Assembly (NCBI GenBank): GCA_013265495.1
Contig: MU057959.1
Coordinates: 75,202 to 139,201 of the forward strand
Direction of reading: 5' to 3'
Origin: Vicugna vicugna
Taxonomy: Eukaryota
DNA: 64,000 nucleotides
Shown: positions 10,248-50,329 of the stretch, piece after piece
How positions within the stretch are numbered: position 1 is the stretch's first letter
How the letters are laid out: every line of letters begins with the position of its first letter
Made by a program: the position numbers and the translations under genes
The notes under the pieces: model-generated
Database searches by the model: none
The model's input: only the letters and a program-made list of their open reading frames with translations
Told to the model about the DNA's origin: nothing

Positions 10248-12788
10248 AATTAATTTAAACCCTCAGAAATAAAATACCACCAAAGAGGACATGGACAGTG
10301 AGTATGAGAGAAAAATTTGAGAAAGGAAATGTCACTTTGGAGAGAGAGAGATGATGTTATGTGGGAACCAGTAATGTTGTCTCCATATTATTGATCTTTA
10401 TTCCATAAGAAGATGACGTGCGTGGTTCTCCCTGACATATTTTGTAGGTGCATAAAATGAGACAGGGTTTAGTTGAGTTGACTGACACATGACAGGTTCT
10501 CAGCCTCAGGGAATAGGATGTTCAAGGGCATGAGAGCTCTTCAGGAAACCAGTTGGCAAATTCTATGTGGAACTTAACACTCCCCATGTCTGTGATGTGT
10601 GGGTGTCCAGTGGGAATTCCCCCAAGGATGTACATGTGGTTGGAGCACTCCTTTGTAGAATTGATTCTCGGAGTTCTGTGGTTTCAGGCTGCATGCTCAT
10701 GGAATGGTTCATCTTAAAATGATTGACAAGATCTGTAATTGAGTTACACTTCTGTTCTAATTTCAAGTTTTGTCTTTAGTGGATGGAAGAATTATATTCA
10801 CCTTTAAGGTAGTGAGGTGTTTTGTTGCTGTTGTTCGTTTGTGTGTGGTTCTAAAGATCTTGCCTTAACAAAATCACCTTCAGAAAGGGGATGGAAATTA
10901 ATGGTGTGTTTTAGGCAGTGTGGTGGTTGGAAGGTTTTGAGTGGGGTAGTCACAGTTATGTGGAATTAAACAAAATTTTTGCAACAATGGTGATATCTCT
11001 CCAAGCCCAGTTCTCCTGGATTCAGGGTGTATGTAGACAACTATGAGGTCAGGACTGATTAAGAAGTTAACCAGTTTTTGTCAACTTTGGCAAGTCTTGC
11101 TTCTCCCTGAGGTCTGTCATCTGCATGAATCCTGCATGATGGTGGTTTATCACCAGAACTGCTCAGCATGAATTGGCCAATCATTAACCTGTAATTTAAT
11201 AAGGCTAAAGAGAAGCAAAATAACCTTAATGTAAGAAAACAAATTCTCTAGTGATACAGGTTAAATGACTTCCACAAAAGACATCATCACTTACAAAAGT
11301 TGGCCCATATGAAATCACAGGTTGTCCCTCCTGATTTATTTCCTAGAGCAGCAGTTATGATAGGTCATTTTTACTTTCACGTAGGTGGTGTTGAAGTCCT
11401 CTTTCATTCGACAGTTACCGCAGCCCAGGGGTAAATCAAAAGGGCAGACATGAAACAACCACCAACTATGACAATTTCCCATTATTTCCAAGGTTTCTTT
11501 TTTTATTTTCAGTAATGTATTTTATAAAAGATTCTTTATTGGCTAATTTTAAATGAAAGAGTTTGTTTCCTGACAGCCTGTTTACATCCTACATGAATGA
11601 TGTATTTATTCATGAACAACTGTACTTCCATTACCAAGACAGAAGACTCTCACAAAGTTTTCTTCTGGAGCCTCCTCCTCCTTCAGCACCTTCTCGTACT
11701 TCTCTAAGAATGCCTCTAATTCTTACTTTGCAATACAATTTCTGTTGCCTGAAAATCACCATGCATAAGCAGAAGTTGACCTGTTAGACCCCTGAAAATT
11801 TCTGAAGACAGAATAAGAAACTGAACATGCAAATCAATTTTATCAGAGTCTCAAACAGATAACCGATGTCTGCTGCATGTCTTCAGAAGGAATCCTAGTC
11901 TGACTCTGAGATTACATTCTCTCTAGCATCAGCACCGTGGCTCCAAAGACTCATCAAGACCTCCATGAATCTTGTGCCCATTTCATCACAAATATAGAAA
12001 CTATTTCCTGTTTTATCAGCTTCCTAAAATCTATGCCTGACATTCAAGCCTCATTGTGGAGCAAACATTCTAGAAACTTGTTCTCACCTCCCAGAGACAC
12101 ATTGACCCTGTTACATAGTCATAGGAGATGGTTTACTCTTTAAGTAAACCACAGTTGACCTCGGTGCCCTTTTGAAATAGACACCTGGTGTCCCAGGGAC
12201 TAGAGCACACCTCTCAGTGAGCCTATGTGGTGATGTCTGCATTCATCAGGACATGGCATTTGAGAAATTGAACAGGATCAAGATTTATTTTCAAATCTTC
12301 AGTTCCAGGGCTTAGAATCCCCTGGAAAAGTGGCATAAAATGAAGACACTGAAGTCAACAAGGTTATAGCAGTGGCTTAAAATTAGTTGACATGTTCAGA
12401 AACTTCCTTAAAAACACTCAATTTTAAAAATTCTTCATTTTTAGCTAATTGGACTTATTTTGAAATGTCAGGTGATGTGTTACTTCCCACTGCTGCCAGC
12501 TCCTCTTTTTTCCTTCCTTGGTAGATCACATCCCAGGATCCTTAATGAACAGAAGGACCTAGGCGCTGTCAATGGATAATGAGCCGTATGTGCACATGCT
12601 GACTTTCTGAATAAAAATGCTGACAGTGAAAGTGTTAACAGACACTGACCATGGAGATATTAGGAAGTGGTACATACCAAATACTTTGACCAGTGTAATC
12701 TCATTGCCTTCTTCATCCACTTTTTTTTTAACAATTACTGTGAGGACACCTTTGGACAGTTTAATCGTTTGCACTTGTATAACATCAT
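10248..12788 (-). pseudogene. OBP/Bos d 2-like lipocalin pseudogene, copy A (exons 4-7 only)
   Basis: Exon 4 ~12788-12678 (VQTIKLSKGVLTVIVKKKVDEEGNEITLVKVF, acceptor lost); exon 5 11748-11635 (114 nt, in-frame TAA at 11725-11723); exon 6 ~11418-11380 (GNCRMKEDFNTTY, acceptor CG); exon 7 from 10441 (acceptor AA); polyA site degenerate. Introns are collinear with copy B. Confidence 0.9.
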
Positions 12789-19432: not shown

Positions 19433-20052
19433 TTCCTTTATTGCAAAATCTACTTTTTTCTTTTTTTTTACTATACATATACAGCAGAAGATTTACAAGT
19501 TACTAACAATTGCTGGACCGATGAAATGTTAAGTTCTTAAAAAAGAAAAGGCTTTTATTCTTTCAACGGGTATGATAACTTACAAGTCGCCATCCACCAA
19601 TACTACTCATAAATAGAGTTGTTTCATGTTTGATATGCACGTATTTGACCCTAGGTATTATTAGGAATTCTCAATCCTTAAGATAGTATAACATGCATGT
19701 GAATAGCCTCTCTTAGCAGGTAATTTGAGAAGTAGCAGCTCTTTTATTTCTCAGATTTTAACATGCACATACATCTTTAAATACAATTTTAGAAAGAAAG
19801 TAATATACACAAATTGATTACTGTAATATAATAGATCCCTGCACTGAAAGCTCCCTCTGCTTGTTAAGCATACATATTCTGCATACTCTTGACATGACTT
19901 TTTTCCCACATCTATGTGAAACATCACCTTTTCAGAGAAATGTTTCCTTACCACCCTAACTAAATCTGTACACTCATACTGCCAATAACAACTCTCATAA
20001 ATTGTAACTGTAGATATGNNNNNNNNNNNNNNNNNNNNNNNNNNNNNNNNNN
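18221..20052. other. Assembly gaps: N-runs at 18221-18631, 18948-19021, 19151-19313 and 20019-20052
   Basis: Seen directly; contiguity across this interval is uncertain. Confidence 0.99.
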
Positions 20053-24420: not shown

Positions 24421-25002
24421 CTCCTTTGTTCTTCTGTGTTTGATTTCTGATTTCATGGCATCATGGTGAGAAAAGTTTCTTGAAATAATTTCTATCCTTT
24501 TAAATTTGTTTAGGCTTCCTTTGTGGCTAACTAATGATCTATCCTTGAAAATGTTCCATGTGCACTTGAAAATATATATTCTACATTGGGGAAGATGGAA
24601 TGTTTTGAAACTATCAATCAATTCAAATTATTTTATTGTGTCATTTAGTTTCTCTGTTGCCTTATTAATACTCTGTTTGGATGATCTGTCCCACATTTTA
24701 ATGGAATGTTAAGGCCTCCTACACTGTGTTCCGATCAGTTTCTCCCTTTTTATCTGATAATATTTGCTTTATATGTTAAGGTGCTCATATATTGGGTGCA
24801 TACATGTTAATGGGTGTAACATCCTCATCTCACATTGGTCCTTTAATCATTATATGGTTTCCTTCTTTGTCTTTTTTATGGCCTTTTAAAAAATGGTATT
24901 TTGTCTTAAATCAGAATTGCCGCTCCTGCCTTCTTATTTCTGTGTGCATTAAATATCTTTTTCCATCCTCTCACTTTTGATCTGTGTGTCCTTCTCCCGA
25001 AA
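24421..25002 (-). mobile_element. Older L1 ORF2 endonuclease-region fragment
   Basis: Homologous to 3020-3540, 39725-40300 and 59325-59910. Confidence 0.85.
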
Positions 25003-26541
25003 GACTGCTCTCCAATATATTAGTGTGTGCATTAAGGAAAATGTGTGGTTTTGTAAAATGTAGACTTTATACCAGTTTCTTGAAAATACTTAATTGTATC
25101 TAAAGATTAAGGAGTAGATTGGCATATGAAATAATTTACTGTGAAATCATGGTTATGTGTCTGTAGGAATGTTTCTCTAAGTTTAGGTTCTTCTTCTCTA
25201 ATGACAGAATTTCTGTAATAGATGTAAGATAACAGAGATTTTCAGTTTCATCTTGAGTCAATTTTTGTAACATTCTTTTCAGGAAATGTGCCCATTTTCA
25301 TCAAAAGTGTTACTTTGGTCTACAAAATTTAGCTTATTGTTTTTGTATTCTCTTTATTTCTGATGAAAATTCAAATTTGCTTTATAGTACTGATTTCACA
25401 AATATTCACCTCACACATATGTATGTATTTATGAATGTTTCATATTTCAAAATTTCCACTCTTTTTTGTCAGGTCCTGCCTTTCAACATTCCCTGAGTTA
25501 GTATGGTGAGATTCACCCCTCCATTTGTACTCAGTCACCTATCTGTGTATCCATCCTCCAATCAAGCAGTTCCACAAACACTCTGTAAACCAGTGTCAGA
25601 AGCCTCCACACATCCCTTTTATATGAGAGGATAATATGAATATGGCGGCCACATCTCTATTACTTCGGTATAAATCCGTAGTAACCTTCCTTACGAGTGC
25701 CTTTGGCTTTGCCCAGCTGAAGCCCATTTGGAGACTATCTCTATGTATTAACTGAAACATTTATTTTGTTGAGTATCACTGAGGTCTAGATTTATATTTC
25801 CAGACCTCGTGCAGATCTCTGTCCCTTGGCCCCAGATCTAGGGTGCAGGCTCTCTTAGATTGCTAACACCTTGAGGACCATGGGAAGCTTCTCCATGTGC
25901 TCTGCCCATTTCTTGCCAATCCTGTGTCTCTTGCTTTTGGAAGCATAGAGGAAAGAATCCTGTCTTCAGATCCTGTGTTCAGTGTCTGACATTACAACTT
26001 CCCACCTGAGCTCTCAGTCGCCTTCTTCCTATGAGGACTCGGCTGACTTAATGGTGCTGTGGAGGGACCATGTCTCAGCTGCTGCCTGTCTTGGATGACT
26101 AGTGACCCATCAGTAATAATTACTGGTCCTTTTACTGAATTTGAGGCATGCTGTGCTGTCGGAAAAGGCACATCCCCTCAGTGATGGATATGGCATCTCC
26201 CACTTTACCTGCATGTATTTGAGTGAGTCCCACACACGTTTCTTTCCCCACAATGACTAAGGTGCCCTGTGAGGACTCTTTTTTTGACCACAGTGCCCCA
26301 TCCCACTACAATAAAGAGAACATAGTCCTCTTCCATTCCCATGATGGTGTACTTCTTTTTTCTCCCTCTGACCAGGACACCCTGAGGACATCTCTGTTTA
26401 ACCCTCATCAGACTTGTCTCTGGTGAGACGTCTGTCTTATTAAAGGCCCATTTTCCTGGATGTTTAATATGGCTATTTGTGAGTTTTAAATTAGGTGACT
26501 TTCTGCAAAGATACACATGCACAGAGTACTTACTAAATCTA

Positions 26542-26547
26542 TTTATT
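26542..26547 (-). terminator. Polyadenylation signal AATAAA of lipocalin copy B
   Basis: tttatt on the plus strand, ~190 nt downstream of the exon 7 acceptor at 26736-26735. Confidence 0.75.
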
Positions 26548-26732
26548 TAATCTGTCAGAAATCAAATACCACTGAAAAGGACATGAATGCTGAGCAGGAG
26601 AGACAAAGTGGAAAGGAAGTATGATTATGGAGAGAGAGATGGATGATGTTTTGCGGGAACCAGGATTGTTGTCTCCATATTGTTGATCCTGATTCCATGG
26701 AGAAGATGATGTGACTGGTTCTCTGTGACATG

Positions 26733-29700
26733 TTCTGTAGGTGAATAAAACAGGACAGGGGTTAGTTGAATGGACCTTATGCCAAGTGACAGAGCTGAGC
26801 CTCAGGGAGTAGCATGTCCTGAGTCAGAGGAGCTGTTAGTGAATCCTGTGGGCAGATTCCATGTGGAAGTTAGTCTCCCCACGTCCCTGATGTGTGGGCG
26901 TCCATTGGGAATTGCCCCAAGTATTTACATATGGCGGGACCTCTCCTGGGTAGGATTGATTCTAGGGGTCTTGTGATTTCATGATGCATGCTCGTGGAGT
27001 GATTCATCAAAAAATGTTTGACAGGATCTCTGATTGAGTTACGCTTTTCTAATTTTTAAATGTCGTCTTTGGTGGCTTCAGAATTATAATCATTTGGAAG
27101 CTACTATTACTGTCTGGCTTTTTCCTCTCCTTGTTCCTAAAAAATAAGTAAATAAATAAAGCCACAAGTTAGCCTCATTCCAGGTCCTTTTCCTGGGCTA
27201 TCTTCTTCTAGAAACCTTAAACATCCCACTTTAGCAAAATCAGCCTCTGAAAAGGAATATAAAACAAAGCTGTGTTTCAGACAGTGTGGTTGGAAGGTCT
27301 TCAGTGGGGCAGTCTCATTTGTGTGCGGTTCTGTAACTGTAAGCAGCTCAGGATGTGTATGAAGATGCACCAGCTCAGGATTGATGGTGAAATTAATTGG
27401 TTTTCATTAATTTCTGGCAATTCCTGCTTCTCTCTAAGGTCTGTCATCTGCATAAAGCCTGCATGGTGGTGATTTCTCAACAAAACTGCACACAATTAAA
27501 TGGCCAATCATTAATATGTAATTTAATAAGACTCGAGAGAAGTGAAAACTCCTCAGTGTAAGAGAAAAAATTGTGTAGTGACATAATTTCAATGAGTGAG
27601 GCAAAAGACATAGTAACCTACAAAATTTGGCTGATACTAAGTCACAGAATGTCCTTCCTGATTTACTTGCTGGAACAGCAGTAACAAGAGTTCATTTTAA
27701 CTTACAGTTGGTTTTGGCAGCATCTTCTTTTATTAAACAGTCACCTGGGGGAAAATCAAAGAGAAGAATAAAAGAATAGCAGAGCATTACAATTTCCCAA
27801 CATTCCCAAAGTTTCCTTTTTTCAGTTATGGATTTTATAGAAGATTCTTTATGGAAGGAAATTTAAACAAATCAAGTTGTTTCCAGACAGCCTATTTATA
27901 TCCCACTTGAATGATGTATTCAGGATAAAGTGTAGTTTTATTACCAAGGCAGAGGACTTTCTGAAGATTGTTTTCTGAAATCCCCTTCTCCTTCAGCAGC
28001 TCCTTGATCTTCTGTAAGACTTTGTCTGTTGTATCACATACTTTGGCTGAAAATCATAATGCATAAAGCAGAATTGTGACCATTAGAATCCTTGAAAATT
28101 TCTGAACACAGTATATGAAATTGTACGTGCAAATCATATCTTTACTTCATGCAAGTTTAACAGAGTCTCAAATTGACACAGACGTCTGCAGAATGAAACC
28201 TTGTCTGACTCTAACAACATTCTCTCCAGCATCAGCACCTAGGCTGCAAAGACTCCTGAGGACCTCTGTGAGTCTAACTTCTGATTCATCACAAATATGT
28301 AAATTATCTGCTGATTTATCAGCTTCTTGGAAACTCTATCTGACATTCAAGCCTCATTCTGGAGAAAATATTCTGGAAACGTGTTCTCACCTCCCTTAGA
28401 CACTTTGACCATGTTACACATAGTCATGGGAGATGATTTATTCTTTAATCAAACCACAGTTCTCCATAGTGCATTTTTGAAATAGTCACCTGTTGTCACA
28501 GGGACTACAGCACACCTATCAGTGAGTCTGTGTGGTCATCTGTGCTGATGTCTGCGTTCTTCAGAACATGGCATGAGAGAAATTGAACAGGATGAAGAAT
28601 TATTTTATGAACTTCAGTTCCAGGCCTTAGAATGCATTGGGAAGTAGCATAAAATGAATTGACTGAGGTCGATCAGATCATAGCCATGCCTTAAAATTAG
28701 TTGGCAATTTCAGATACTATTTTTAAAACAAGTGAATTTTCAAAATTCTTCAATTTTAACACATGGTACTTATTTTGAAACGTCAGATGATCTGTTACTT
28801 CCCACTGCTACCAGCTCCTCTTTTTACCTTTGTTTCATTGTAGATCACATTTCTGAATCTTGATGAACACAGTGACCTAGGCCTTGTCAATGGGCAATGA
28901 GTCATATGCACACCTGGTGACTTTCTGAATAAAAATGCTGACAGTGGAAGTGTTAACAGACACTGACCATGGGGATGTTAGGATGTGGTACATACCAAGC
29001 ACTTCGAGCACTTTGGTCTCGTTGCCTGCTGCATCCACCTTGACAATAATTACTATCAGGACATTGTCAGATAGTTGAATAGTTTGCAATTCTTTTATAC
29101 AGTCATCTGTGAGGGAACAAGAAAAGACATGTATAGTTACACGTTTTTATTGGTTGTGCGTTAGTATCATCATGACACATTTAGTGGATTACTACCCACA
29201 GTCATGCCTGTGGTGGTCCGTGTGTCACTCCATCAGTGCGGTGACACTACACTTGGTTACAATGGCACGGAAAGTGGGGAAGACCCTCCTTATCACCACC
29301 CTCTCATACAGTTCACCTGTCACACCTTGCAGAATTACTAGCATGTTTCCTAGAACATGTTTTCTACCGCAGTTAACATGTTTGTTTATTTTTTAACCAC
29401 ATGTGCATATTACCATGTGCAAGTTCAAGAAATCTGTATATATACTTTTTTATCCCAGGAATGGAATTGATTTCTCTTTGTGACCAAAAGCAGCTGACTA
29501 TTCATCACTGGTTGTTGAGTGCTGCCCTGTAGCAAGCACCTTCTGCACACTGTGTAAGAATGACTGCATTTCTTCTGCCCTGCACTCTCACTGTGTGACA
29601 TCACAGATGTGCAGAGGACACTTGTATAGGTCAGTGTTAGGACAGGTTTACTTGCCAGTATATAGAGGAAGTGACCACCTCACAGTAAAGTCACCCCCCG

Positions 29701-32700
29701 TGGAGGGGTGCACCTCACCTCTCTGGCTCTGTCCATCCGCCTGCCACTTTCTCTTCAGATGAAGAAACACTGATCTACTCTGTGTTACGTCTAAATCCAT
29801 TCTCACTTCTAGCCCTCCTGACACCTTATTGGAATCACTCATCCAGATCTGATATAAAACTGCCCAGCTGTGTACGCAAAACACAAAAATAGCATCACCC
29901 ATTCTCTGGAACACTGAAACACCATGTGACTGCCAGAGCAATGACTAAGTAAGAGCCAGCACAGCTTCAGAGTTTCAACTGAGTCTTTGTGTCTTGCCCA
30001 AGGCCACTCCAAGGCCATGAACCTTCGGTTCCACTGGGAGCATTTAAATAAGGTTTTATGCATCTCTTCAGATTCTCAGTCCCCACCTAGGTGATACCCA
30101 TCGTTTTACAGAGGAGAGTTTGCACACAATCTCACAATGGGATGTACATGTTTTCAAGGTGAAGGAGACAGAGTGTATCTCCTTGGACCCCTGCTGTGAT
30201 CAAGGCGCCGCTGGTGCTGTGCTGGCCATGCCTGCACATCGTGCCCCCAGAACCACGCTGGGAGGCTGCAACCTCTAGTTCCCAAAGACTTTAGAACAGG
30301 CCAGCTGTTCCTTTCTCTCCCTTCTTAAGTTGCCCTGTCAACATCCAGGTAGAAAAGATTCCCCAAAATGGAGACATTTAAAGGAAGAGTCGTAAAGGCA
30401 GGAATGATTCAGCCAAAGGAGAATGATAATAGGGGAATAAAAAATAAAAACACCCATTTAAATCTCCTGATATAAAAAGTTATTTATGAAAATATAAGGA
30501 AGTCTTTCCAGCATACATTTTATGTATTTGTGTTCATTGAACAACCCCTGTGCTATTTTTTCAATTATACAAGGGTTGGGACCTCATATTGATATATTTA
30601 AGTGTTCACCAATTATGTACCCCATAGACCATTTAAATTTAGGAATGCTGTTTAGGGCCATTAGAAAGAACTTAGAGAGTTAAATCTTAACCACCAACCC
30701 CATTGCTTTGAACACAAACTGTGTTTATGAAGCAATATGCTTGGTGTTTAAAATGACTACTTCGTGGCTGTAAAGTTCTTGGCTATATAGGAATGGATTA
30801 AGATGTTGTGAGGTTGTTTTCAAAAAGTGTATTTTGCTGAATGAGTTTGATATGTAAACTCAAGATAGACTCTTGAGACAGTAGTTCCTAGAGTGGTTTT
30901 AAAGAATATAGAAATAGTTTCATGCACCTGAGAACCTCTTGAAATAACAGTTATATGTATATGTGGTTAGTCTATCATTGACTACACTCAAGATTGAGAA
31001 GGGCCATCCAAGTCATGTGATTTAAGCCTTTGCTCATGACAAAATATCGTGCCTGGAAAGTTTAGGGCCTAGTGCCTGTCTGGTCACACCTCTTCTCTGT
31101 GGTAGAGCTAAAATTATAAAATATGCAGTTCTTGAAAGAATTTGTGGCCAAGATTCCAACCCTAATATGCTTTTTCACATAAAACTGTCATACTTACCTC
31201 CTACAGGATAAACACCGTCTTCTTGCTTTGTTTCCTTGATAATTGTTTGTGTGCTTTTTCCATTGAACCTTGAAGGCAAAACATATTCAAACTGGTGTTT
31301 AAAAATAATGAACAGTTTAACATTTAATTAGGATTTTCTTTGTTTAACCCTCCCAAGTCCCTATGTCACCTATCACCTTTGTGCCCGTAAACAAGGTCAC
31401 ATTCAAAAGAGAAGAAATAAGTCGTCTAAGATCAAGTAACTGTCCAGTGGCCTGAATGCCTGGTTACACATAAAATCTGAGCAGTATTTCACAAGATAAA
31501 CTTTAGAAACCAAAGAGATCATGTTTAAAGCCTAAAGAACATAAATAAATCTAGAATTTGGAGAAAGAAAAGTAAAAAGGCTTTTCTTGAAACTGATAAC
31601 TATCAACACACATTTTAGCTGTGTCACAACTCTGGCCAATAATTTTTAGAGAATATAATGAAAAAACAACAACAAAAAAGGGCAAACGTGTTTAAGTATA
31701 TCCAAAACACAAACTCTTCTATCAAAGCTCTGTGAGAGAATTAAACATTGAAAATCATATGTGTGTGTGTCAAAAAATGTGACTTCATCAACAGTCAGTT
31801 AAATATAGACTATTCAAAGTTACGGAAATAATAAACAGTAAATTAATATGGTCAAACTGTGTGACAGCTGACAGGTATGTTTACTGGGATAGGGTATATA
31901 CGTGTGTGTGGGTGTAATTTGGTTATATGTAAGCTATCAAATATATAATATACAGTCAGGTATATATATTTGTTTATCTTTAAAACAGTCTCTCAAAAGT
32001 TAAAGCTCTTAGTTGACTTCTTAATACTTTTTTTCTTCAAAATATCTCTCTGAGTTTGCATGCTCCTAATAAAACCCCTGCCACGTGGAGAACATTCCCT
32101 GAGCAGCACTGGGAGCTGTGGTGACCTTAATATGTTTAGTGATGATTGTAAATAGCTGAGAGTGAGCCCTTCACGGTTGAGGCCACTTTGTCCTCCACGT
32201 GCCCACATCCTCTGGGGCTCAGGGGTAAGCATGTCCTACAAGTTGGACGTGGACTCAAAGCCCTATGGACTGAAGGGATGGAAGACAGGGCCCTCTATTT
32301 CCTGGTACATTGGTGCTTCTTCCCTTTAAGATTTGACTCCAGTGGAGCATCTGTGACCTTCCCTCTAAGGAAAGGCTCCAGGATGTTCTCTAGAGGCCGA
32401 TCCTGGACCTGACTGAGAAATTCCAGAGACACCTCTAATGCTCACAACCCCAGGAGCTGCAGTGTTCCACCTAACCCAGGTATTTCTCAGCAAGTGTGGA
32501 GGCCAGACCTTTTCTGAGGGTTGGGGATTTATGTGAGTTTTCCCTTTGTGTTATTTTTACTTACCTCTCAAAAATCGTGAAGGTGATTGTGCCTGCTTCA
32601 TCGTCTATTTCAACCTCACAGATGAAAGTTTTACATGGGCACTTACTGGCCTCTGTGTCACTGGCTGAGATGTAAATTGGTTTCCATACTGAATTCTGAA

Positions 32701-33266
32701 AGCAAAATTCCTTAGTAAATGTAGCTCATATCTTTTCATTGTGTCCAGCATCATCCATCATGACTGTCCCTTCACTTCTGCACATCAGCACGGATTACTA
32801 CGTACTTTGCATGGACGAAGCAGGGTTCATAAAAGAATGTGAAAACACAAGTCAAAGGGAAATCATGGAGTTTAGGTTATTCAGAGATCGTTTACCCTCC
32901 ATGAAATGAAAGATTTCAAGTGGGACCCGTTTTGGGGTGACCCCCCTTCACTTGTACAAGAGCAGTAAAGATGCAGGAGAGCCCAAAAATAGGTGATGGG
33001 GAGAAGACGGAGGCAGTATAGAGGTGCGGGTGCCATTTAGAGGAGGAGTTCTGAGTTGGAGCTAGCTGCCCAGGTGACGTTCACAGAAACATCAAAACAC
33101 ATAATCACAATCCAAAAGTACACACACACACACACACACACTTACAGATATACAACCTCCTCCCAGATGAGGCCATCCCAGGTACCTTTGATACAATGTC
33201 CACATCTGAAGTTTCTTGGGCGGTGCAAAGCACACCAAGTACAAAAGTCAGGAAGAGAATCTTCAT
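26733..33266 (-). CDS. Intact spliced secreted lipocalin, OBP / allergen Bos d 2-like, copy B, 178 aa: MKILFLTFVLGVLCTAQETSDVDIVSKNSVWKPIYISASDTEASKCPCKTFICEVEIDDEAGTITFTIFERFNGKSTQTIIKETKQEDGVYPVGDDCIKELQTIQLSDNVLIVIIVKVDAAGNETKVLEVLAKVCDTTDKVLQKIKELLKEKGISENNLQKVLCLGDCLIKEDAAKTN
   Basis: Coding segments 33266-33186, 32695-32565, 31268-31198, 29106-28996, 28046-27945, 27744-27706 and 26734-26733 total 537 nt with no internal stop. All introns are GT-AG with phases 0,2,1,1,1,1. Exon sizes 71/111/102 are lipocalin-like. The signal peptide plus QET resembles Bos d 2; TKQEDGVY, VD..G and EKGISENN resemble artiodactyl OBPs. Confidence 0.92.
27706..27744 (-). CDS. Copy B exon 6 (39 nt)
   Basis: ttcccccag|GTGACTGT...AACT|gtaagt; carries the conserved C-terminal DC motif. 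Confidence 0.85.
27945..28046 (-). CDS. Copy B exon 5 (102 nt, predicted C-terminal helix)
   Basis: ttttcag|CCAAAG...CTTG|gtaat; LQKIKELLKEKGISENNL. Confidence 0.92.
28996..29106 (-). CDS. Copy B exon 4 (111 nt)
   Basis: ctcacag|ATGACTGT...CTTG|gtatgt; overlaps track ORF 28877-29089. Confidence 0.92.
31198..31268 (-). CDS. Copy B exon 3 (71 nt)
   Basis: ttcaag|GTTCAATGGA...GGAG|gtaagt; FNGKSTQTIIKETKQEDGVYPVG. Confidence 0.9.
32565..32695 (-). CDS. Copy B exon 2 (131 nt)
   Basis: tttcag|AATTCAGTATGG...GAGAG|gtaagt; contains the SCR1 Trp (WKPIYI). Confidence 0.9.
33121..33141. repeat. (CA)n microsatellite in intron 1 of copy B
   Basis: Seen directly; an interrupted counterpart lies at ~50165-50210 in copy C. 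Confidence 0.9.
33186..33266 (-). CDS. Copy B exon 1 coding part (signal peptide, MKILFLTFVLGVLCTAQETSDVDIVSK)
   Basis: ATG in acaATGA context, hydrophobic core, donor AAG|gtacc. Confidence 0.93.
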
Positions 33267-33350
33267 TGTGCTTGTTCTTCAAGTTGTGCTGTTGGAGAAG
33301 CTGTGCGTGCTGTGTGTCAGCTGGTGGAGAAAACTTGAATGTGTGCCTCT

Positions 33351-33357
33351 TTTTATA
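33351..33357 (-). promoter_or_regulatory. TATA box (TATAAAA) of copy B
   Basis: 85 nt upstream of the ATG; conserved at the same spacing in copy C (50413-50419). Confidence 0.85.
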
Positions 33358-36300
33358 GGATCCCTCTGGTGTCCTGACCCATAATGAACCAATGGTTGTT
33401 AATCCAAGACCTGGTTACATAGACGTTTTGTTCGGATATCCTGGTTGGCAGGGAGGAGCTTTTCTGGACATTCATTGTGTTTATTTGAGATTGGTTTTAA
33501 GAGAAGCTTAAGTTGATCCTGACACTTGACCTTTAGGGTAAGTGAGAAATCATAGTACATATGAGATGTTTCAAGGACAGTGATAGTTGTTTTCTTTTAT
33601 ATCCCGAGTTGCAGAATGGGATAAGTCCAAGATACATTTCCGCAAATAGAATGTTGTTTCTTTAGCATTGAGGGGATATGTTTAAGCATACTTTGTCAAA
33701 CTAAAGATGCTGCTGTTCAGTATAACAAGATTACAGTGATTCCCTAAGAGACCTTAGGAAAGTCTCCAATCCCTGAGGGCAGGAACAGATCAGCATAAAC
33801 ACGTGTCTCCTCCCCAGACCAGGCTCTGTCATCCTTTTCACTAAGAGGAACTTTCATGCCGATGCCCAACTACCTCTAGTGAGGAAGGCACTTCAGCACT
33901 TCATTGTCATTGGTCTATTTTCCAAAGCTTTTATTACAATCTTTTCTTTAACATGTCATTTACCCATTGACTCAGTTGTTCCTCCAGGTAAGCATGCATG
34001 CGTGACTGCAGTTCTTATGATTTTTACAAATTTGAAAGGAAAAAGCAAACTTCCATTCTTTGTACCTCTGGTTATTTTCAAGGACACTGGAACAGGCAAG
34101 GAACACTTTTTGTTTGTTTTCCTCAAATTTTTATTCATAATCATTTTCTAGTGTTTCATCAGATAAATTCTCAGTTATATTTTGTTCTGACTATAGAAAT
34201 GGTAGTTGGATCATGTCCCGCTCCATCTGAGTGAGATCACCCAGTGACCTGACTGAGTCCCAGCTGCTCCCGGGACACACAGCCTCAGCATTTGTGTCTT
34301 TGTTACCTGACCTTTGAGGGGAGTGGGATTGAAAGTGATCTTCAGCCTCTGTCTTTTCTCTGACTCTTGTCTTCCTGCTCACAAAGACCAATGCTGTTGA
34401 TTCACTGTCGTCTTTTCTCTTTTGTTTTGGTCCCAGTATCATATTTTCTCTTTGTTTCACAGACTCCTCTGTGTATCGGTCTATCCAGTGTTCCATTGTG
34501 AAGTCTATGGGAGGGAAGGTTTTCATGCCTCAGAATGTCTTAGAATTTGTTCTCTTACCTCTCTGATTAGGATAATTCTGAGCAGGGTTGTGATCACAGC
34601 TAACACCCTCATCCACCTTTCTCACTCCCTCCAACTCTGCCTGTTTCACCCCAACATTAGCAGGTTTTTCTTTTGAATCCTGGCAACATATATTCCCTGG
34701 CAATATACACCCAGGGGATCCCATCTTAGAAAGAGCTTTCTAAGTCAATCAAGGGGAAATTAAACAGTAGTCACTCTCAGAGACTTCTGCGGCAACTTGT
34801 TCTTTGTATCCTGTTTATCCTGTTATTTTAGACCTACAAAAATCATATGAGCTTTAATCCCTATTGCCTTGAGTTCATGTCAGTCACAATGTGTTTTAAC
34901 AGTGTGACAGATGGTAAAGGAACCATCCTACACAAACATGAAGCTCTTGTCCCCCTAATGTTGGTAACCCATCCTATGTAGATGTCTCTGGTCTTTCTTC
35001 TCAAATTTGTCCAGTTTCCTAGAACTCTGTGCCCCACCTCCCAGTTTATAAACTAAATTATGTCTTCTTTTTCTATTCTCTCTGTGGTCATTGTTTTTAC
35101 ATCTTAAATTCCATAATTCCTCTCTAAATATTGCAAGGAACATTTCGAGACTCTGCAGCAGACACACTTCACTCCCTCAAGGATTCTGAACCATGATACC
35201 AATGAATTTAGAATCTGACTTGATGTAATTCACCACATGCCCAGTTTTTGAGATCTGATCCTGGTGAAATTCTCTTCCACAATGTCCCTCAAATGACAAG
35301 CTCAGAAATCCCAAGTGTGTTTTATTGATGATGTTGGTCCAGATCTAGGGTGTTCAGTCTTGTGCCTGGACATCCGCCCCTCTGCCCAGCACACCAGGAC
35401 AGGGCATTTCTCCTTGTCTCACAGCACACTTCTCAGCAGAAGGCTGTTGCGCCCTCTTCCCAAAGCTTGCCCTGTGTCAAGATTTTCTCAAGGCCGTGGT
35501 CCCCTTGGTCGATCTCTTCTAAATCTCCCTCTCTCCCTCTGGATTTGTGCTGACTCGGGTGGTTTTCTACTTACTCCTGCCCACAGTGTAGTAAATCCCG
35601 AACACCTGCTTCCCACTTTATGAGCATTTTTTTCTTTTCATAAGCAGTCTTCATCTACTAAAGAGCCACTTCCATAGTGTCATAATCTTTGGTCTTTGGA
35701 GTCGGCTGCATCCCCAGTGCCCAGGACTGGTGAGTGGATTAGTTTGTGTCCCCGGGGATTTCTGTTCCTGATGGGCACATGTGGGAAACGATGAATGTAA
35801 TAGCGAGATTTGGTGAAAAGAAATCCTTAAGGACATTATAATGAACTACAGTCCAGAGCCATGTGCAGGGATCATTCAGTTACACTCAAAGGTGTATGGC
35901 TGAAATAGAAAGGATTGTTTTCACCAGAGTTCCTTGGCAAAAGAAGCAAGGAGCTAGCAGGTCTGGTGGGACTGATTCATGTATGTTTAGAAGAAAGTCA
36001 ATGTTGGACAGCATCCCTCCTCTAGGATAGTTGTACTCAAAATGCACGAAGAAACGGAAACACAGGTATGGCATGTTGAATAATACAGGTGGTGTAGAAA
36101 GAAGGAGGTTCACACTTTAAAACCAATTTACAGAGAATAGGGATTCTGGCGTTACATAATTACCCAGGTTGTACATTTCAGCATAGCTTTTAGGGACCTC
36201 TGTAGTCTGTTTCAGGAAAGGATCACCATATTTCCATGAAAAGTCAAGGGGTTTAGAAACACTTTGAGGTGTTAAGCAGCGTCAGCAAAGGAGAGCTAAA

Positions 36301-43769: not shown

Positions 43770-46700
43770 AGAAAGGAAGTATGATTATTGAGAGAGAGAT
43801 GATGTTATGTAGGAACCAGGAATGTCGTCTCGATATTGTTCGTCCTGATTCCATGGAGAAGATGTTGTTCCTTAGTCTCTGTGACATGTTCCGTAGCTGA
43901 ATAAAACAAGACAGTGATTTGTTGAGTTGACTGTATGACAGTTGGCAGGGCTCAGCCGCAGGGAGTAGGTTGGCGAAGGGCAAGAGGAAATGATAGTGTA
44001 TCCAGTGGGCAGTTTCCACGTGGAACTTAATACTCCCCATGTCTCTGATGTGTGGGTATCCATTTGGAATTCCCCTGAGGATATATATATGGTGGGTCCA
44101 CTCATGTTTAGGATTAAGTCTAGCAGTTTTGTGATTTAAGGATTCATGCTTATGGAATGGTTCATCTGAAAATGATTGACGGGATCTTTGGTTGAGTTAC
44201 ACTTTTTTAGTTTTAAAAGTTTTGCCTTTGGTGGCTTCAGAATTATATTCATTTGGAAGCTACTATTACTGATTGCCTTTTTCCTCCCTTTGTCCTTAAC
44301 AGAAAAGAAGCAACAGTTTAGCCTTATTCAATGTCCTTTTCCACGGCTGTCTACTTTTAGAAACCTTAAAAATTCCACTTTAACAAAACCGTCCTCTAAA
44401 GGGGAAAATAAACTATATGCCTGTTTTAAGAAGTGTGGTTGGAAGGTCTTCAGTAGGGCTGTCACAGTTATGTGCACTTAAACGTGGTTTTTTCAGCCAT
44501 GGTGTGTTATCTGTAAGCCCATTTCTCCTGGACTTGGGCTATATATGTACAGCCATCAGGTTGAGGCAGACTGGAAAATTCGTTAGTTTTCATCAATTTC
44601 TGGCAATTCTTGCTTCTATCTAAATAAATCCTGCATGATGGTGCTTTCTCATCAAAACTGCTCAGCATTAATTGGCCAATAAAATTTGTAACTTAATAAG
44701 ACTCAAGAAAAGCAAAAAATCCTTAATGTAAGAGAAAAAATTGTCTAGTGACTTAATTTAGATGTTTGAGCTAAGAGACATTGTCATGTACAAAACTTCG
44801 CCCATATTGTTTCAGATTGTGTCCTTCGTGATTTAGGTGCTGGAGCAACATTAACAATAGGTCAATTCTACTTACAGTTTGTAGTCAGAATGTCTTCTAT
44901 TGGACACTTAAGACAGTCCTCTGGGGGGAAATCAAAGGGAGAAGAATAAAAGAATAGGGGAATATTACCATTTCCCAACATTCCCAAAGTTTTCTTTTTT
45001 AAGTAATGGATTTTATAAAAGATTCTTTATGGAAAAAAATTTAAACAAATCAGTTTGTTTCCTGACAACCTACTTACATCCCATGTGAATGATACATTGA
45101 GGAAAAAGTGTAGTTCCATTAACAAGACAGAAGACTTTTTCAAGATTTTCTTCTGGAACCTCTTTTCTCTGTCAGCAGCTCCTTGATCTTCTCTAATTCT
45201 TCAGTTTTTATATCACATACTTTGGCTTAAAATCATAATGCATAAAGCAGAATTTCGAACATTAGAATCCCTGAAAGTTTCTGAACAGAGAATAAGAAAT
45301 TGAATGTGCAAATCAGATCTTCACGTGGTACAAATTTAGCAGAACCTGTCATAGACATAGACGTCTGCTGCCTGTCTTTAGAGTGAAACTTTGTCTGACT
45401 CTGTACCTGTGTTCTCTCCAGCATCAGCACCAAGGCTTTGAAGACTCATCAGGACCTCCTTGAATCTGGCCCCAGATTCATCACAAATACGGAAATTAAG
45501 TGCTTTTTTATCAGCTTCCTAGAATCTGTACCTGACATTTATGCCTCATTCTGAACCAAATATTCTGGAAACATGTCCTCACCTCCCAGAGACACATTAA
45601 CAGTTTTAGTCATAGTCATGGGACATGATTTATTCTTTAATCAAACCACAGTTCTCCGCAGTGCCATTTGGAAATAGACACTGATGTCCCAGGGACTAGA
45701 ACACACCTCTCAATGAGCCTGTGTGGTCATCTGTGGTGATGTCCACCTTCGTCAGAACATGGCATAAGAAAAATTTAACAGGATGGAGATATATTTAAAA
45801 AAAAACTTCAGTTCCAGACTTTAGAATGCATTGGAAAATGGCATAAAATTAAGTAACTGAGGCCATTGGATCATAGCCATGCTTTAAAATTAGTTGGCAA
45901 GTTCAGATACTATTTCTTAAGCAAGTAAATTATTAAAATTCTTAAATTTTAAACAGGGATTTATTTTCAATTGTCAGATAATCTATTACTTCCCACTACT
46001 ACCAGCTCCCCTTGTTACCTTTGTTTCTTTGTAGATCACATCTCTAGATCCTTAATGAACACAATGTCCTAGGTCTTGTCAGTGGGTAGTGAGTCATATG
46101 TGCACATGCTGACTTTTTGAATGAAAATGCTGATAGTGAAAGTGTTATCAGACACTGACCATGGGGACAGTAGGATGTGGTACATACCAAACACTTCGAC
46201 CACTTTGATCTCGTTGCCTTCCTCATCCATGCAGACAACAGTTACTACCAGGGGATCTTCAGACAGCTGAGTTATTTCGACTTGGTTTGTGCCATTATCT
46301 GTGAGTGAGTGAGAATAAACATGTATACAGATGTGTCCTCATTGATTGCACTTTAGCCTGAGAAGGGCCGTTTGTCACTTTGTCACTGCGGTAATGGTAC
46401 AGGTGGTTATGATGGCAGGCACAACGGGAAGGCCTTCCAATCACCACCTTCTCATACAGTTAGCCTGGTCACAACTTGCAGTCTTACTAGAATGTTTTTT
46501 TGAGTGTATGTTGTAAGGAAGCCAACATGTTTATTTATTCTTTTTAACAACATGTGCATATCACGACATGCAAGTTCAAGAACTCTCTATATTTCCAGTA
46601 TCCCAGCAATGGAGCTGATTTTTGGGGGGAATCAGTATCAGATTACCATTTGAAACTTGGTGTTATGAGTGCTGCTCTATACCAGGCTACCTTTGGCACA

Positions 46701-49700
46701 TTGTGTAGAAATGACTGTATTTCCTCAGCCTCGGTTCCCGTTATGTAGCAGACATTATGAGGCCACCGCCGTGTGTGTCGGTGTTAAGTCATGTTTACTT
46801 GCCAAGATGTGGAGGAAGTGACAACGTAAAATTGAATGCACATCCCCTGGAGGGGTGCACCTCACCTCGCCTGCTCTGTCCCTCCCCCTGCCATATTTCT
46901 CTTCAGAAGAACAAGAACTGGTCTACTCTGCATTACCTCTAAATCCATTCTCATGTCAAGCTCTCCTGACACCTTATTGGAACCAGTCATCCTCATCTGA
47001 CTTAAAACTGCCCAGCTGCATCCCCAAACCTCAAAAACACCACTACCCACTATCGGAACCCTGAAACATGGTGTGTCCGCCAGAGCAAAGACTAAGGAAC
47101 ACCCAGCACAGCTTCAGAGTTTCAAACAAGTCTGTGCATCTCGCCCAAGTTCACTCAATGTCCATGGGCCTTGGGTTCCACTGGGACCATTTAAGTAGGA
47201 TTTCATGCAGCTCTTCAGGATCTCAGTCACCACCTATGTGATCACCGTCATTTTACAGAGGAGGGTTTGCAAACAATCTCACTATGGGCTGTACATGTTT
47301 TGAAAGTGAGGGAGGCAGTGAGAGTAAGCGCATCTCCTGGGCCCCCTGTTGTGATCAAGGCGCTGCTGGTGCTGTGCTGGCCGTGGCTGCACGTTATGTC
47401 CCCAGAACAACGCTGGGGGTGCTGCAATTTCTTATAAGAATAAAATTAAAACATTCTTTAGGAAATGTCCTGACATATAAAGTTATTGGTGAATATGTAG
47501 AGAAATCCTTAAATCATATATTTTAGTGATTTGTGTCTATTGAACAACCCCTGTGCTACTGCTTATGTTACACCAGGGTTGGGGCCTCATATTGATACAT
47601 TTAAAATTAATCGTGTCATCAATTATGTACCCCTCACACAATTTAAATTGAGCAATGCTGATTATGGCTCTTCAAACAAACTTAAACATTTACATCTTTG
47701 CCACCAATCTAATTGCTTTGAACACAAACTGTGTTTATGAAGCAATAAGCTTGGTGTTTGAAATCAGTATTTTGGGTGTTATTTATGATCATTGGCTGTA
47801 TAGGAATGGATTAAGATGTTCTAAATTTGTTTTTAAAAAGTATATCCTGCAGAATGACTTTTATGTGTAAACTGAAGATGGACCCTTGAGACATTAGTTC
47901 CTAAGGTTTTTGGAAGACTCTAGAAGGAGTTTCATGCAATTCAGAACCTTCTGAAATAATGGTTCTATGTTCATGTGGTTGGGCTGTCATTCAATACACT
48001 CAAGACTGGGAAGGGCCATCCCAGTCATGTGATTTGCATCTTTGTTCATGACAAAATCAGTGCCTGGAAAACTTATGGTATGTAGCTTCTCTATTTTAGC
48101 ATTAGAATTTTAAAATATGGAGTTATCCAAAGAATTTGATACCAAGACTTCAACCCTTATATACTTTTACCAAGACTTCAACCCTTATATACTTTTACCA
48201 TAAAACTGTCATACTTACAACCTATGGTATAAACCCCATCTGCTTGCTTTGTTCCCTGGACACCTTCTATTTTGCCTTCTCCGTTGCACCTTAAAAGAAA
48301 ACATAATCAAATTGGTTGGTTCAAAATAATGAACAATTTGACATTTAATTATGATTTCCTTTGTTTCATCCTCCCTAGTGTCAATGTCACAACTCACCTT
48401 TGTGTCTGTGAACAAGGTCACATTCAGAAGATAAGAAATAAGTCATCTAACATCAAGTTACTTTCAAGTGACAAAGATGCCTTGTAACACATAAAATCTG
48501 AGCAGAAGTTCCAAAGATAAACTATGAATACAAAACAGATCATGTTTAAAGCCTAATAAACATGAAGAAATCTAGAAGTGGGGAAAGGAAAGAAAAGTTA
48601 TGAGGGTTTTCTTGAGACTCATAGCTATCTAGACACACCTTACTTGTTTCACAAGGCTGGGCAAGACTTCTTACAGAATATAATAACTGACAGCAACAAC
48701 AACAAAAGGAGAAAAATGTGTTTGTGTCTCTAAACACAAGCTCTTCTATCAAAACGCCATAAGAGAATTAAACATTGAAAGATAGATAAATGTATGTGTG
48801 TCAAAAAGTGTTGCCACATGAAAAGTCAGTTATGTATAGGGTACAAAAAATTATGGAAATGGTAAACAGGAAGGTAAATGGTGTTCTTGAAATTTCTGAC
48901 AGCTGACATCTACTGGGATAGGATATATACACGTGTGTGTGGATGTAATTTTATTATAAGTAGGCTATCAAATATATATAATATACAGTCAATTATATAT
49001 ATTTGTACATCTTTAAAACAATCTCTTCAAATATAAAGCTCTTAGTTGTCTTCTGAATGCTTTCATTCTTGAAAATACATATCTGTGTTTGCATGCTCCT
49101 AGGAAAACCCCTGCCGTGTGGAGAACATTCCATGATTAGCACTGGGAGCTGTGGTGATCTTAACACATTTAGTGATGATTGTAAGCCACTGAGAATCAGC
49201 CCTTCAGGATAGAGGCCACTTTGTCACCCATGTCCCGGCATCCTCTGGGTCTAAGTGGGGAAGCATGTCGTACAAGTTGGACGTGGACTCAGGGCCCTAG
49301 AACTGTGGGGATTGAGGACAGGGCCCTCTTGTTCCTGCCCCATTGGCCCCTCTTTCGTTTAATGAGTTGACTCCAGTGGAGGCTGTGTGGCTTTCTCTCT
49401 AAGCAAAGGCTCCCAGACGTTTTGTAGAGCCTCATTGTGGACTTGACTCAGAGATTTCAGAGACCCTTCTAAATCCTCTAAATCCAGGGAGTCGCAGTGT
49501 TCCACGTATCCCAGGTATTTCATAGCAAGTGTGGAAGCCCGACCTTTTCTCAGAAATGGGGATTTATGTGAAATTTCCTTCTGTGTTATTTTTACTTACC
49601 TGTCGGAAATTGTGAAGTTGATTGTGTCAGTTTCATCATCGTTTTCATCCTTTCTGATAAAAAGTTGCATGGACAGATCTCAGTGGTCTTCTCTGTGTTA

Positions 49701-50329
49701 CTGAATGCGATATAAATGAGTTTCCATTCTAAAATCTGAAAGCAAAATTCCTCTTAGAAACTGTAGTTTATCTCTTTTCATTGTGTCCACCACCATCCAT
49801 CATGAGTTTCCCTTCACTTCTGCACATCAGCACAAATTACCTACGTTGCATCAACACAGCAGGATTCGTAAAATAATATGAAAACCCAAGACAACAGGAA
49901 AATATGGAGTTGGCAGTTTTCAGAGATCCCTTACCCTCTGTTAAATGGAAGAGCTCCAGTGGGACAGGTCTCTGGCTGACCCCCCCTTTTCTTGTACAAG
50001 GACAGTCAAGATTCAGTAGAGCCAAGTGATTGATGGTGGGGAGAATATGGAGACAGTATGGAAGTGCAGATCCCAGTTAATAGAGCGGTTCTGAGTTGGA
50101 GGTAGGTGGCCAAGTGAAGTGCACAGAAATATGGATACACATAACCACAGCCCCAAAAGGCCTCCCACACCCACACACACACATGCGCACACACACACAC
50201 AATTACACACAGATAAGACCTCCTCCCAGATGAGCCTGTCCCTGGTACCTCTGATGGAGCATGCACATCCAGAGGTCCTTGGGCAGCACAAAGCACACCA
50301 AGTACAAGCGTCGGGAACAGAATCTTCAT
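43770..50329 (-). pseudogene. OBP/Bos d 2-like lipocalin pseudogene, copy C (all 7 exons recognisable)
   Basis: Exon 1 50329-50249 (MKILFPTLVLGVLCAAQGPLDVHAPSE); exon 2 49735-49600 (136 nt, -1 frameshift); exon 3 48289-48219; exon 4 46298-46188 (YNGTNQVEITQLSED..DEEGNE); exon 5 45225-45123 (103 nt, +1 frameshift, donor GT>TT); exon 6 44920-44876 (EDCLKCPIEDILTTN); exon 7 from 43890 (acceptor AG>GG), truncated before the polyA signal. Confidence 0.92.
48141..48200. repeat. Perfect 28-bp tandem duplication next to the exon 3 donor of copy C
   Basis: accaagacttcaacccttatatactttt x2; single copy in B (~31147-31177). Confidence 0.9.

Follow-up and report, generated by a model that had tools for sequence, protein, structure and literature searches.

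What holds together a lipocalin barrel that has lost one partner of its canonical disulfide and carries seven cysteines? The question is raised by a gene, here called B, in a stretch of 64,000 nucleotides from Vicugna vicugna (assembly GCA_013265495.1, contig MU057959.1, written C1129 in coordinates). We call this whole 64-kb stretch, C1129:75202-139201, the window. B is a seven-exon gene on the minus strand whose body is the region 27706-32695, and its product belongs to the odorant-binding proteins (OBPs). A disulfide between strand D and the C-terminus is near-universal among lipocalins, and bovine OBP (bOBP) is treated as the lone exception among OBPs. We find that B lacks the strand-D cysteine, keeps the C-terminal one and has cysteines at sites where none of the OBPs compared from outside its group has one. 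We lean towards the reading that B is an intact, probably functional secreted OBP-type lipocalin of a cysteine-rich camelid subfamily, in which the old staple has been replaced by a new set of cysteines.

The predicted precursor of B has 178 residues, by which all residues are numbered here; coordinates refer to the window unless they are marked C1129. It contains cysteines at positions 14, 46, 48, 53, 97, 135, 164 and 168, and a serine at 76. Cys14 sits in the signal peptide, three residues before the likely cut, and is likely removed with it; the mature chain would have about 160 residues. A preliminary description of this DNA had listed seven cysteines in the mature chain together with Ser76, and the same numbers were obtained when we spliced the gene again. 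We then compared B with known OBPs in a MAFFT alignment of 24 rows, consisting of B, its camel orthologue P0001, one paralogue cut from the camelid model P0002 and 21 OBP-type representatives from outside this group. Cys63 of the pig OBP precursor (P0015) is found opposite Ser76 of B, and pig Cys155 opposite Cys168, in agreement with the earlier claim that the canonical barrel cysteine was lost and its C-terminal partner kept. The codon of Ser76, AGC, is one step away from TGC. A strand-D Cys is present in 16 of the 24 rows and a C-terminal Cys in 19. The lipocalin domains of the 21 outside representatives hold between zero and five cysteines, most often two, and none of the 21 has a Cys at 46, 48, 97, 135 or 164. 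Indeed, cysteines at 46, 97, 135 and 164 are shared within the alignment by B, P0001 and the P0002 paralogue only, while Cys48 occurs in B and P0001 only. The pattern is thus not a common one among known OBPs, as the preliminary description had supposed, and its observation on the cysteines is confirmed. Judged from the aligned residues, the canonical strand D to C-terminus staple cannot form in B.

The strand D/C-terminal Cys pair and the GxW motif are listed as OBP or lipocalin features (PMC8474896). B lacks the two-cysteine signature because of Ser76. In the GxW region Trp31 is kept and the Gly is changed to Ser (S-V-W); the canonical OBP of the same gene array is likewise without the Gly (S-D-W). 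The YxxxYxG signature is replaced by Y91-P-V-G-D95-D-C97 in B, and in dog OBPs this signature is only partly conserved (PMC8474896).

The seven-Cys count of mature B holds if the donor of exon 6 is used; read-through of this donor would add an eighth Cys (..NCKLK*). The predicted splice is well-supported. Exon 6 ends in phase 1 with a GTAAGT donor, and an acceptor about 1 kb downstream (..CCTACAG, then AACATG, first base 26734), which is conserved, gives T+AA and hence a TAA stop. In addition, camel P0001 ends in identical residues.

The cysteines of B recur around it. On the contig ten lipocalin units follow one another in tandem at intervals of 15-20 kb, each on the minus strand, and B is unit 5; we mapped the B exons over C1129 1-219,201. 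Three of the ten units are intact, namely unit 1, which lies about 80 kb from B and encodes a canonical two-Cys OBP, unit 3 (E) with six cysteines and B with seven. The preliminary description had noted that the motifs CPC, KVCD and CLxDC are common to B and its neighbour C, that a CL-G-N-C equivalent exists in the other neighbour A, and that in C position 76 is Gly and NG is immediately preceded by a Cys. We find each of these, that in A by homology, and the three motifs recur across the ten-unit array and in Camelus proteins, which supports the earlier view that they are ancestral to the subfamily. We counted identity to B over all subfamily copies read in homologous frame, pseudogenes included. 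The Cys is the same as in B at 135 in 4/4 copies, at 164 in 4/4, at 168 in 3/3, at 48 in 5/6, at 46 in 4/6 (E and H lack it), at 53 in 3/6 and at 97 in 1/5. The counts for 135, 164 and 168 include one lineage twice, so that the independent counts are 3, 3 and 2; in exons 5/6, the row labelled as a camel D paralogue in fact represents the E orthologue of camel. Wherever an array copy still has exons 5/6, Cys135, Cys164 and Cys168 are present. Over the seven Cys columns the mean identity to B is 0.74, compared with 0.46 over the 147 columns in which at least three other lineages are represented (permutation P = 0.014).

The vacated site at 76 shows a further regularity. Every copy that lacks Cys76 and is readable over exons 2-4 has a Cys flanking the site, either at 69 or 72 in strand C or at 97 in the E-F loop: 97 in B, 69 in E, 72 in C, 69 and 97 in D, 72 in G, 69 and 72 in H, and 72 in F. 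B alone has no Cys at 69 or 72; it has Phe69 (TTT) and Phe72 (TTC), each one step from a Cys codon, and Cys97.

Sequence, fold, gene structure and genomic neighbourhood all identify B as an OBP-type lipocalin. Exon 2 alone matches bovine OBP in the PDB and a single database protein, P0001 (KAB1253562.1, 87% identical to exon 2). This protein, annotated as 'Odorant-binding protein' of Camelus dromedarius, is the orthologue of B, with all seven Cys identical and the same C-terminus. Over exons 2-6 the two differ at 10 of 151 aligned residues and by an in-frame indel, P0001 having two extra residues just before CPC; it also has CLDVC in place of CLGDC and a different first exon, which is probably mis-annotated. 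Word-index protein searches matched P0001, P0002 and P0003 only. When 1.84 billion representatives were searched exhaustively with HMMER, 41 matches had E <= 0.001, and only these three reach 1e-30, P0002 (Camelus ferus) and P0003 being chimeric camelid models. Scored on the orthologue, the Pfam Lipocalin family PF00061 gives 34.7 bits (E = 2.5e-8), above its curated cut-off of 23. P0001 matches 21 distinct PDB sequences, led by the deswapped bovine OBP mutant 2hlv (1.1e-17, ungapped) and followed by native bovine and pig OBP; the bovine and pig matches range from 1e-17 to 7e-15, and the top eight are all bovine, pig or rat OBP. The closest solved relatives are therefore OBPs, and the gene lies in an OBP array.

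An AlphaFold2 (AF2) model of P0001, built from a 25-sequence alignment, reached a mean local confidence (pLDDT) of 81.9 and a predicted TM-score (pTM) of 0.75. Because the model shows strands A-H and a helix at 125-137, we assign the lipocalin fold, in which an alpha-helix comes after a barrel of eight strands; further on are a short strand I and a lower-confidence C-terminal helix (150-163). Foldseek places the model on solved OBPs and lipocalins with TM-scores of 0.67-0.76, and on the monomeric OBPs 2hlv and 1a3y with 0.67/0.72-0.73 at a root-mean-square deviation (rmsd) of 2.8-3.0 Å. Domain-swapped bovine OBP chains fit poorly (rmsd ~13.8 Å). The ESM Atlas model of P0001 has a pTM of 0.70, and an AMBP cluster is among its structure neighbours (TM 0.59). 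A seven-exon layout is typical of lipocalin genes. Exons 2-6 of unit 1 measure 137/71/111/102/48 nt, and B (81/131/71/111/102/39 nt plus exon 7) matches at 71/111/102. The N-terminus of B is signal-peptide-like and points to a putative secreted protein.

Where would the cysteines lie in this fold? The P0001 model puts Cys46 where loop 1 ends, Cys48 on the opening residue of strand B and Cys53 in the middle of that strand. The E-F loop closes with Cys97, the hinge contains Cys135, and the C-terminal helix begins with the CX3C pair of Cys164 and Cys168, which are separated by a single turn. For comparison with bovine OBP we used the ungapped HMMER alignment, in which the bOBP number is the P0001 number plus 2. 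Here Cys48 corresponds to Phe36, Asp95 to Tyr83 and Ser76 to Trp64; Cys135 falls on the residue that directly follows the hinge. Phe36 and Tyr83 control access to the cavity of bOBP according to a molecular-dynamics study (PMC3127118), and Trp64 is the residue that was mutated to Cys in GCC-bOBP, restoring the disulfide (PMC4841237). The "door" residues of bOBP thus appear to be replaced by Cys48 and Asp95 in B, as far as aligned positions can tell.

From these positions we propose how the barrel of B may have been stapled anew. The old strand D to C-terminus bond would be replaced by a new set of bonds. One, Cys135-Cys164, would close a module made of the helix and strand I; we favour this pair because the two cysteines bracket that module, sit at both ends of one exon and always co-occur. 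A second would link Cys168 to a barrel cysteine that hopped between neighbouring sites, in B to Cys97. From ideal sheet geometry we estimate that positions 69, 72 and 97 would lie within roughly 6-8.5 Å (Cα) of position 76. Cys46, Cys48 and Cys53 would then be left at the cavity mouth and in strand B, where only Cys46 and Cys48 could bond with each other, giving a CPC disulfide. Since at most one bond can form among these three, at least one free thiol would be placed at or near the cavity mouth. The arithmetic is simpler still: seven cysteines cannot all pair inside a monomer, so that one unpaired thiol per chain is unavoidable, just as the preliminary description had argued from the odd count. 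Its wider reading, a new disulfide topology with a free thiol, is plausible; the uses it names for this thiol, covalent dimerisation, metal binding or the binding of thiol odorants, would be candidates. Other connections may be drawn. Cys48 could bond to 69, 72 or 97 and Cys53 to a tail Cys, which would pair all six cysteines of E, or Cys164 and Cys168 could form an internal CX3C bond resembling Cys38-Cys42 of the rodent OBPs. Pig P0007 and yak P0016, which have no Cys76 and a Cys at 53, were considered as precedents for a bond between Cys53 and the C-terminus; we rejected them, as their C-termini are aberrant: in one, 10 residues of strand I are deleted, and the other has a read-through tail.

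A more far-reaching version of this idea appears unlikely to us. It holds that the door was rebuilt from Phe/Tyr to Cys/Asp, that the CPC motif would capture metal ions, thiols or electrophilic odorants by reversible thiol chemistry or redox gating and not by hydrophobic enclosure, and that the CX3C helix together with the hinge Cys would replace the lipocalin disulfide. A Cys-Pro-Cys motif is known as the redox-active disulfide of Mia40 (PMC4951193).

Is B a working gene? We regard this as quite probable. The open reading frame (ORF) is intact and all ten internal splice sites are canonical; promoter boxes, a TAA stop completed via exon 7 and an AATAAA signal are present. Exons 2-6 are open in both camelid lineages and the only indel between them is in frame. 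Under a neutral simulation of substitutions only, with indels excluded, the probability of no stop is 0.14-0.06 for a B terminal branch of 0.10-0.14, as measured from intron-flank trees. We also turned to sequencing reads. The list comprised 24 runs, 20 with part of the stretch and two on record as RNA; the comparison covered X17, X18, X19 and the DNA run X12. X17-X19 are filed as RNA-seq of a 'reproductive system metagenome' and cover the locus unspliced (25000-34000). X17 is about 95.6% identical to the window (243 differing letters in 5,506 bases), and the exon differences in X17-X19 match the camel protein (K140E, N109D, T125S). These three runs look like host genomic or unspliced/pre-mRNA background of a related species, and say nothing on expression.

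Several points weigh against our interpretation and should be considered together. The proposed pairs are a best guess from co-occurrence and ideal beta-sheet geometry, and the preferred scheme would leave Cys48 and Cys53 of intact E unpaired, so that other schemes fit E better. The ratios of nonsynonymous to synonymous divergence (dN/dS) between paralogues are 0.75 (B-C), 0.81 (B-E), 1.25 (B-unit 1) and 1.03 (E-unit 1). With an intron divergence to the related species of 4.4%, taken from contigs of X17 and assuming that they represent the P0001 lineage, as the exon differences support, the 10 amino-acid changes between B and P0001 compare with a neutral 14.1 +/- 3.6 (P = 0.16). P0001 does keep all seven cysteines (7/7); however, neutral expectation gives this outcome about half the time (P = 0.48), and orthologue conservation is therefore not evidence by itself. 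P0001 is moreover the only full homologue, an automatic annotation with the deviating first exon, and the structural model is that of this camel orthologue and not of B itself. Protein searches returned no RefSeq-style model of B, and in the RNA-labelled runs X17-X19 no splice joints were found at the B exon borders, the introns being covered like the exons. Three unit trees, built from exons with 200-nt flanks, came out star-like (well-supported inner branches: 2, 1 and 0), and the order of Cys gains and losses therefore cannot be set. The preliminary description had used A, B and C as evidence of shared motifs; the motifs stand, but as genes A and C do not, both being pseudogenes. Finally, loss of the canonical disulfide is not unprecedented, since bovine OBP is without it (PMC4841237).

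How else might the pattern have come about? The explanation that several of these points suggest is that B is a not-yet-disabled relic of a decaying array, unexpressed or unused, whose cysteines are historical noise. We consider this doubtful, if the most serious of the alternatives. Seven of the ten units are pseudogenes, and the paralogue dN/dS values of 0.75-1.25, a camel divergence that is not significantly below neutral, the lack of spliced reads in the RNA-labelled runs and the lack of a RefSeq-type protein model among the search results all fit a relic. The open ORF with its intact splice sites, promoter boxes and poly(A) signal does not obviously fit, nor does the exon 2-6 frame that stayed open in Camelus with its sole indel in frame. 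The neutral chance of escaping a stop on the B branch, 0.14-0.06 before indels are counted, and Cys columns that are conserved above the average likewise tell against it. Unlikely in our view is a protein in which six cysteines pair within the chain and the seventh bonds to another molecule, as a covalent homodimer or by coupling to another protein. The odd count is real, and in the alignment with pig OBP Cys53 falls on what would be an outward-facing or bulge position of strand B, a side-chain orientation which we partly assume. Functional unpaired cysteines are also known in lipocalins, for example Cys34 of alpha-1-microglobulin (PMC7965949). Intact sister E, however, has an even six, so that an odd count is not a feature of the subfamily.

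Quite unlikely appears the idea that Cys46/Cys48, Asp95 and Glu129, the latter presumably facing the cavity as in pig OBP, form a new OBP ligand site, which would bind a metal or capture sulfur-containing or electrophilic odorants by reversible thiol chemistry, with a redox CPC gating the door. It would account for the replacement of both bOBP door residues and for the presence of Cys48 in five of six lineages, and it could draw on the redox activity of CPC in Mia40 (PMC4951193) and on the free thiol that alpha-1-microglobulin carries on loop 1 at its open end (PMC7965949). Against it, the site is read off aligned positions, and Cys46 is missing from E and H. Extracellular cysteines are, furthermore, usually oxidised. 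Very improbable, in turn, is that B without its canonical disulfide forms a domain-swapped dimer. The best PDB relative, bOBP, has no disulfide and swaps its helix (PMC4841237), and Ser76 aligns with bOBP Trp64. The bovine swap also needs a shortened hinge, though, and the hinge of B has the length of that in pig OBP and the Gly121+ mutant; in the HMMER alignments only native bOBP calls for a gap, and this mutant, 2hlv, does not. The C-terminal Cys is likewise retained in B, and the AF2 model lies about 3 Å from monomeric OBPs compared with 13.8 Å from swapped chains, although a single-chain model could not show a swap. Taking both sides into account, we keep to an intact lipocalin with a replaced staple as our preferred reading.

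Several known systems bear comparison with this proposed re-stapled lipocalin, an unusual member of its family. Bovine OBP (1OBP; deswapped 2HLV) resembles B in lacking the strand-D Cys and is its best sequence and fold match (1.1e-17, TM 0.67/0.73), but it has no Cys at all, a hinge one residue shorter and a domain-swapped dimer (PMC4841237). B in contrast has a long hinge, the C-terminal Cys and six further cysteines, and so does not show the combination of short hinge and empty canonical sites that marks a domain-swapped OBP. Loss of the canonical disulfide thus has a precedent in bOBP, which lost both cysteines and shortened its hinge; B did neither. Pig OBP (1A3Y; P0015) and unit 1 share with B the fold, the seven-exon structure, exons of 71/111/102 nt and the promoter boxes. 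They differ in that their two Cys form the canonical disulfide and YxxxYxG is unbroken, where B has Ser76, YxxxDxC, seven cysteines and a 10-residue C-terminal extension. Rodent OBPs and aphrodisin possess an extra Cys38-Cys42 disulfide in a CXXXC motif (PMC8476925), and B also has a CX3C at Cys164-Cys168. The rodent motif, however, belongs to the B-C hairpin, corresponds to B positions 57 and 61, where B has Ile57 and Ala61, and is additional to the canonical disulfide; the CX3C of B is C-terminal and includes the canonical Cys. Alpha-1-microglobulin, only distantly related, has its free functional thiol Cys34 at the open end (PMC7965949), comparable to Cys46/Cys48, which in the model lie where loop 1 passes into strand B, but it keeps the canonical disulfide, C72-C169, which is absent from B. 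In our literature searches, with subscription papers and supplements outside their scope, no account of a camelid OBP or of the Cys pattern of B came up; the main text of PMC8474896 has no mention of camel, alpaca or Vicugna, PMC5327394 mentions only yak OBP2b, and a term search of PMC3507732 gave no passages.

The B exons were found from stop-to-stop frames and splice signals and then spliced by coordinates in a script. The six minus-strand coding exons (33266-27706) give the 178-aa product, with AG/GT at all internal boundaries. The features are collected in the table below. Exon 4 contains the one N-glycosylation sequon, Asn123-Glu-Thr. A (TG)n/(GT)n microsatellite lies right after exon 1 (~33110-33155), as it does in intron 1 of units 2, 8 and 10, and reads and contigs break there.

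Table. Features of gene B and of its nearest paralogues; positions refer to the window except for gene E, which lies outside it.
Feature	Position	Strand	Description
CCATTGG	33389..33395	-	inverted CCAAT-like box of the B promoter; common to other array units
TATAAAA	33351..33357	-	TATA box, ~90 nt before the B ATG
B exon 1	33186..33266	-	ATG and signal peptide, 27 codons, includes Cys14; donor GT
B exon 2	32565..32695	-	Trp31 of the GxW region, CPC, Cys53, Phe69 (TTT)
Cys46 codon	32641-32639	-	in B exon 2
Cys48 codon	32635-32633	-	in B exon 2
Cys53 codon	32620-32618	-	in B exon 2
B exon 3	31198..31268	-	Phe72 (TTC), NG turn, Ser76 (AGC, 31255-31253) at the canonical strand-D Cys site
B exon 4	28996..29106	-	Asp95 (door Tyr position), Cys97 (29101-29099) replacing the Gly of YxxxYxG
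B exon 5	27945..28046	-	hinge Cys135 (28038-28036, KVCD), alpha-helix, strand I, Cys164 (27951-27949)
B exon 6	27706..27744	-	Cys168 (27739-27737, = pig Cys155) and C-terminal extension, helical by prediction in the orthologue
B exon 7	26530..26734	-	3' untranslated region; AATAAA at 26547-26542; 3' end approximate
Gene E (unit 3)	G000:C1129:140729-152816	-	intact paralogue, 193 aa, upstream of C, outside the window
Gene C (unit 4)	44876..50329	-	pseudogene; keeps CPC, KVCD, CLEDC; has Cys72
Gene A (unit 6)	11340..12788	-	fragment with exons 4-6 only; keeps the Cys164 and Cys168 equivalents

The neighbours of B show what became of the rest of the array. E has AG/GT at all splice sites, the same T+AA stop and six mature cysteines at B positions 48, 53, 69, 135, 164 and 168. 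An insertion of 11 residues in the exon 4 region is common to E and the Camelus models P0002 and P0003, and protein searches gave no clean model of E. C is damaged by frameshifts in exon 2 (136 nt) and exon 5 (103 nt), a premature stop early in exon 3, a TT in place of the exon 5 donor and a GG at the exon 7 acceptor. A, which with its exon 7 keeps exons 4-7, has a stop in exon 5 and has lost the acceptors of exons 4 and 6. Exons 1-3 of A are deleted and not hidden in the N runs of 18221-20052. These four runs, at 18221-18631, 18948-19021, 19151-19313 and 20019-20052 (682 bases in total), lie between A and B in an AT-rich stretch, and no lipocalin exon similarity was found beside them. Among units 2 and 7-10, reading frames are shifted or stopped, splice sites are lost or exons are absent. 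The CCATTGG and TATAAAA boxes stand before the ATG in all units examined, and B has kept both. Unit 2 has a divergent D-type exon 5 (C1129:165412-165546; GNGDC...IIICP) with about 66% DNA identity to B exon 5; it keeps a Cys at each end despite this divergence, and the type is seen twice in camel P0003. Taken together, a cysteine-rich subfamily seems to have spread as a tandem array next to a canonical OBP gene, and most of its copies then to have decayed.

A repeat of about 200 nt marks the duplication unit. Its copies at 53361-53573 and 35628-35792 lie 2.5-3.2 kb upstream of C and B, and a third, at 14583-14777, lies just upstream of A, from which the deletion of exons 1-3 at that place follows. 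The repeat appears translated as 'MVVHMCPS..' in camel models. Exon 7 is 80-92% identical between units, compared with 66-83% for the coding exons, which suggests that the coding exons evolve faster than the untranslated region. The translation of exon 7 (..SSPWNQDQQ..) recurs as C-terminal tails in the artiodactyl models P0017 (buffalo) and P0003, suggestive of alternative use or mis-annotation. The public camelid models P0002, P0003, P0005 and P0013 are chimeras of exons from several array units. Chimeric models include repeated copies of exon 4, intron read-through (..GNETTLFPEYII..) and upstream repeat-derived ORFs (MVVHMCPS..).

In summary, public gene models of this locus are chimeric or missing, and the array behind them would represent a second route by which an OBP can lose its disulfide: the barrel partner is gone, the C-terminal Cys is kept, and new cysteines have appeared at neighbouring sites, in the hinge and at the cavity door. 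If B is not expressed, it would be only a curiosity of a decaying array. The one locus offers three intact natural variants with two, six and seven cysteines, and hence a series in which the tolerance of the barrel for re-stapling may be followed. This series bears on the question of whether a thiol at the cavity mouth changes the ligands of an OBP, and on the birth-and-death of chemosensory carriers.

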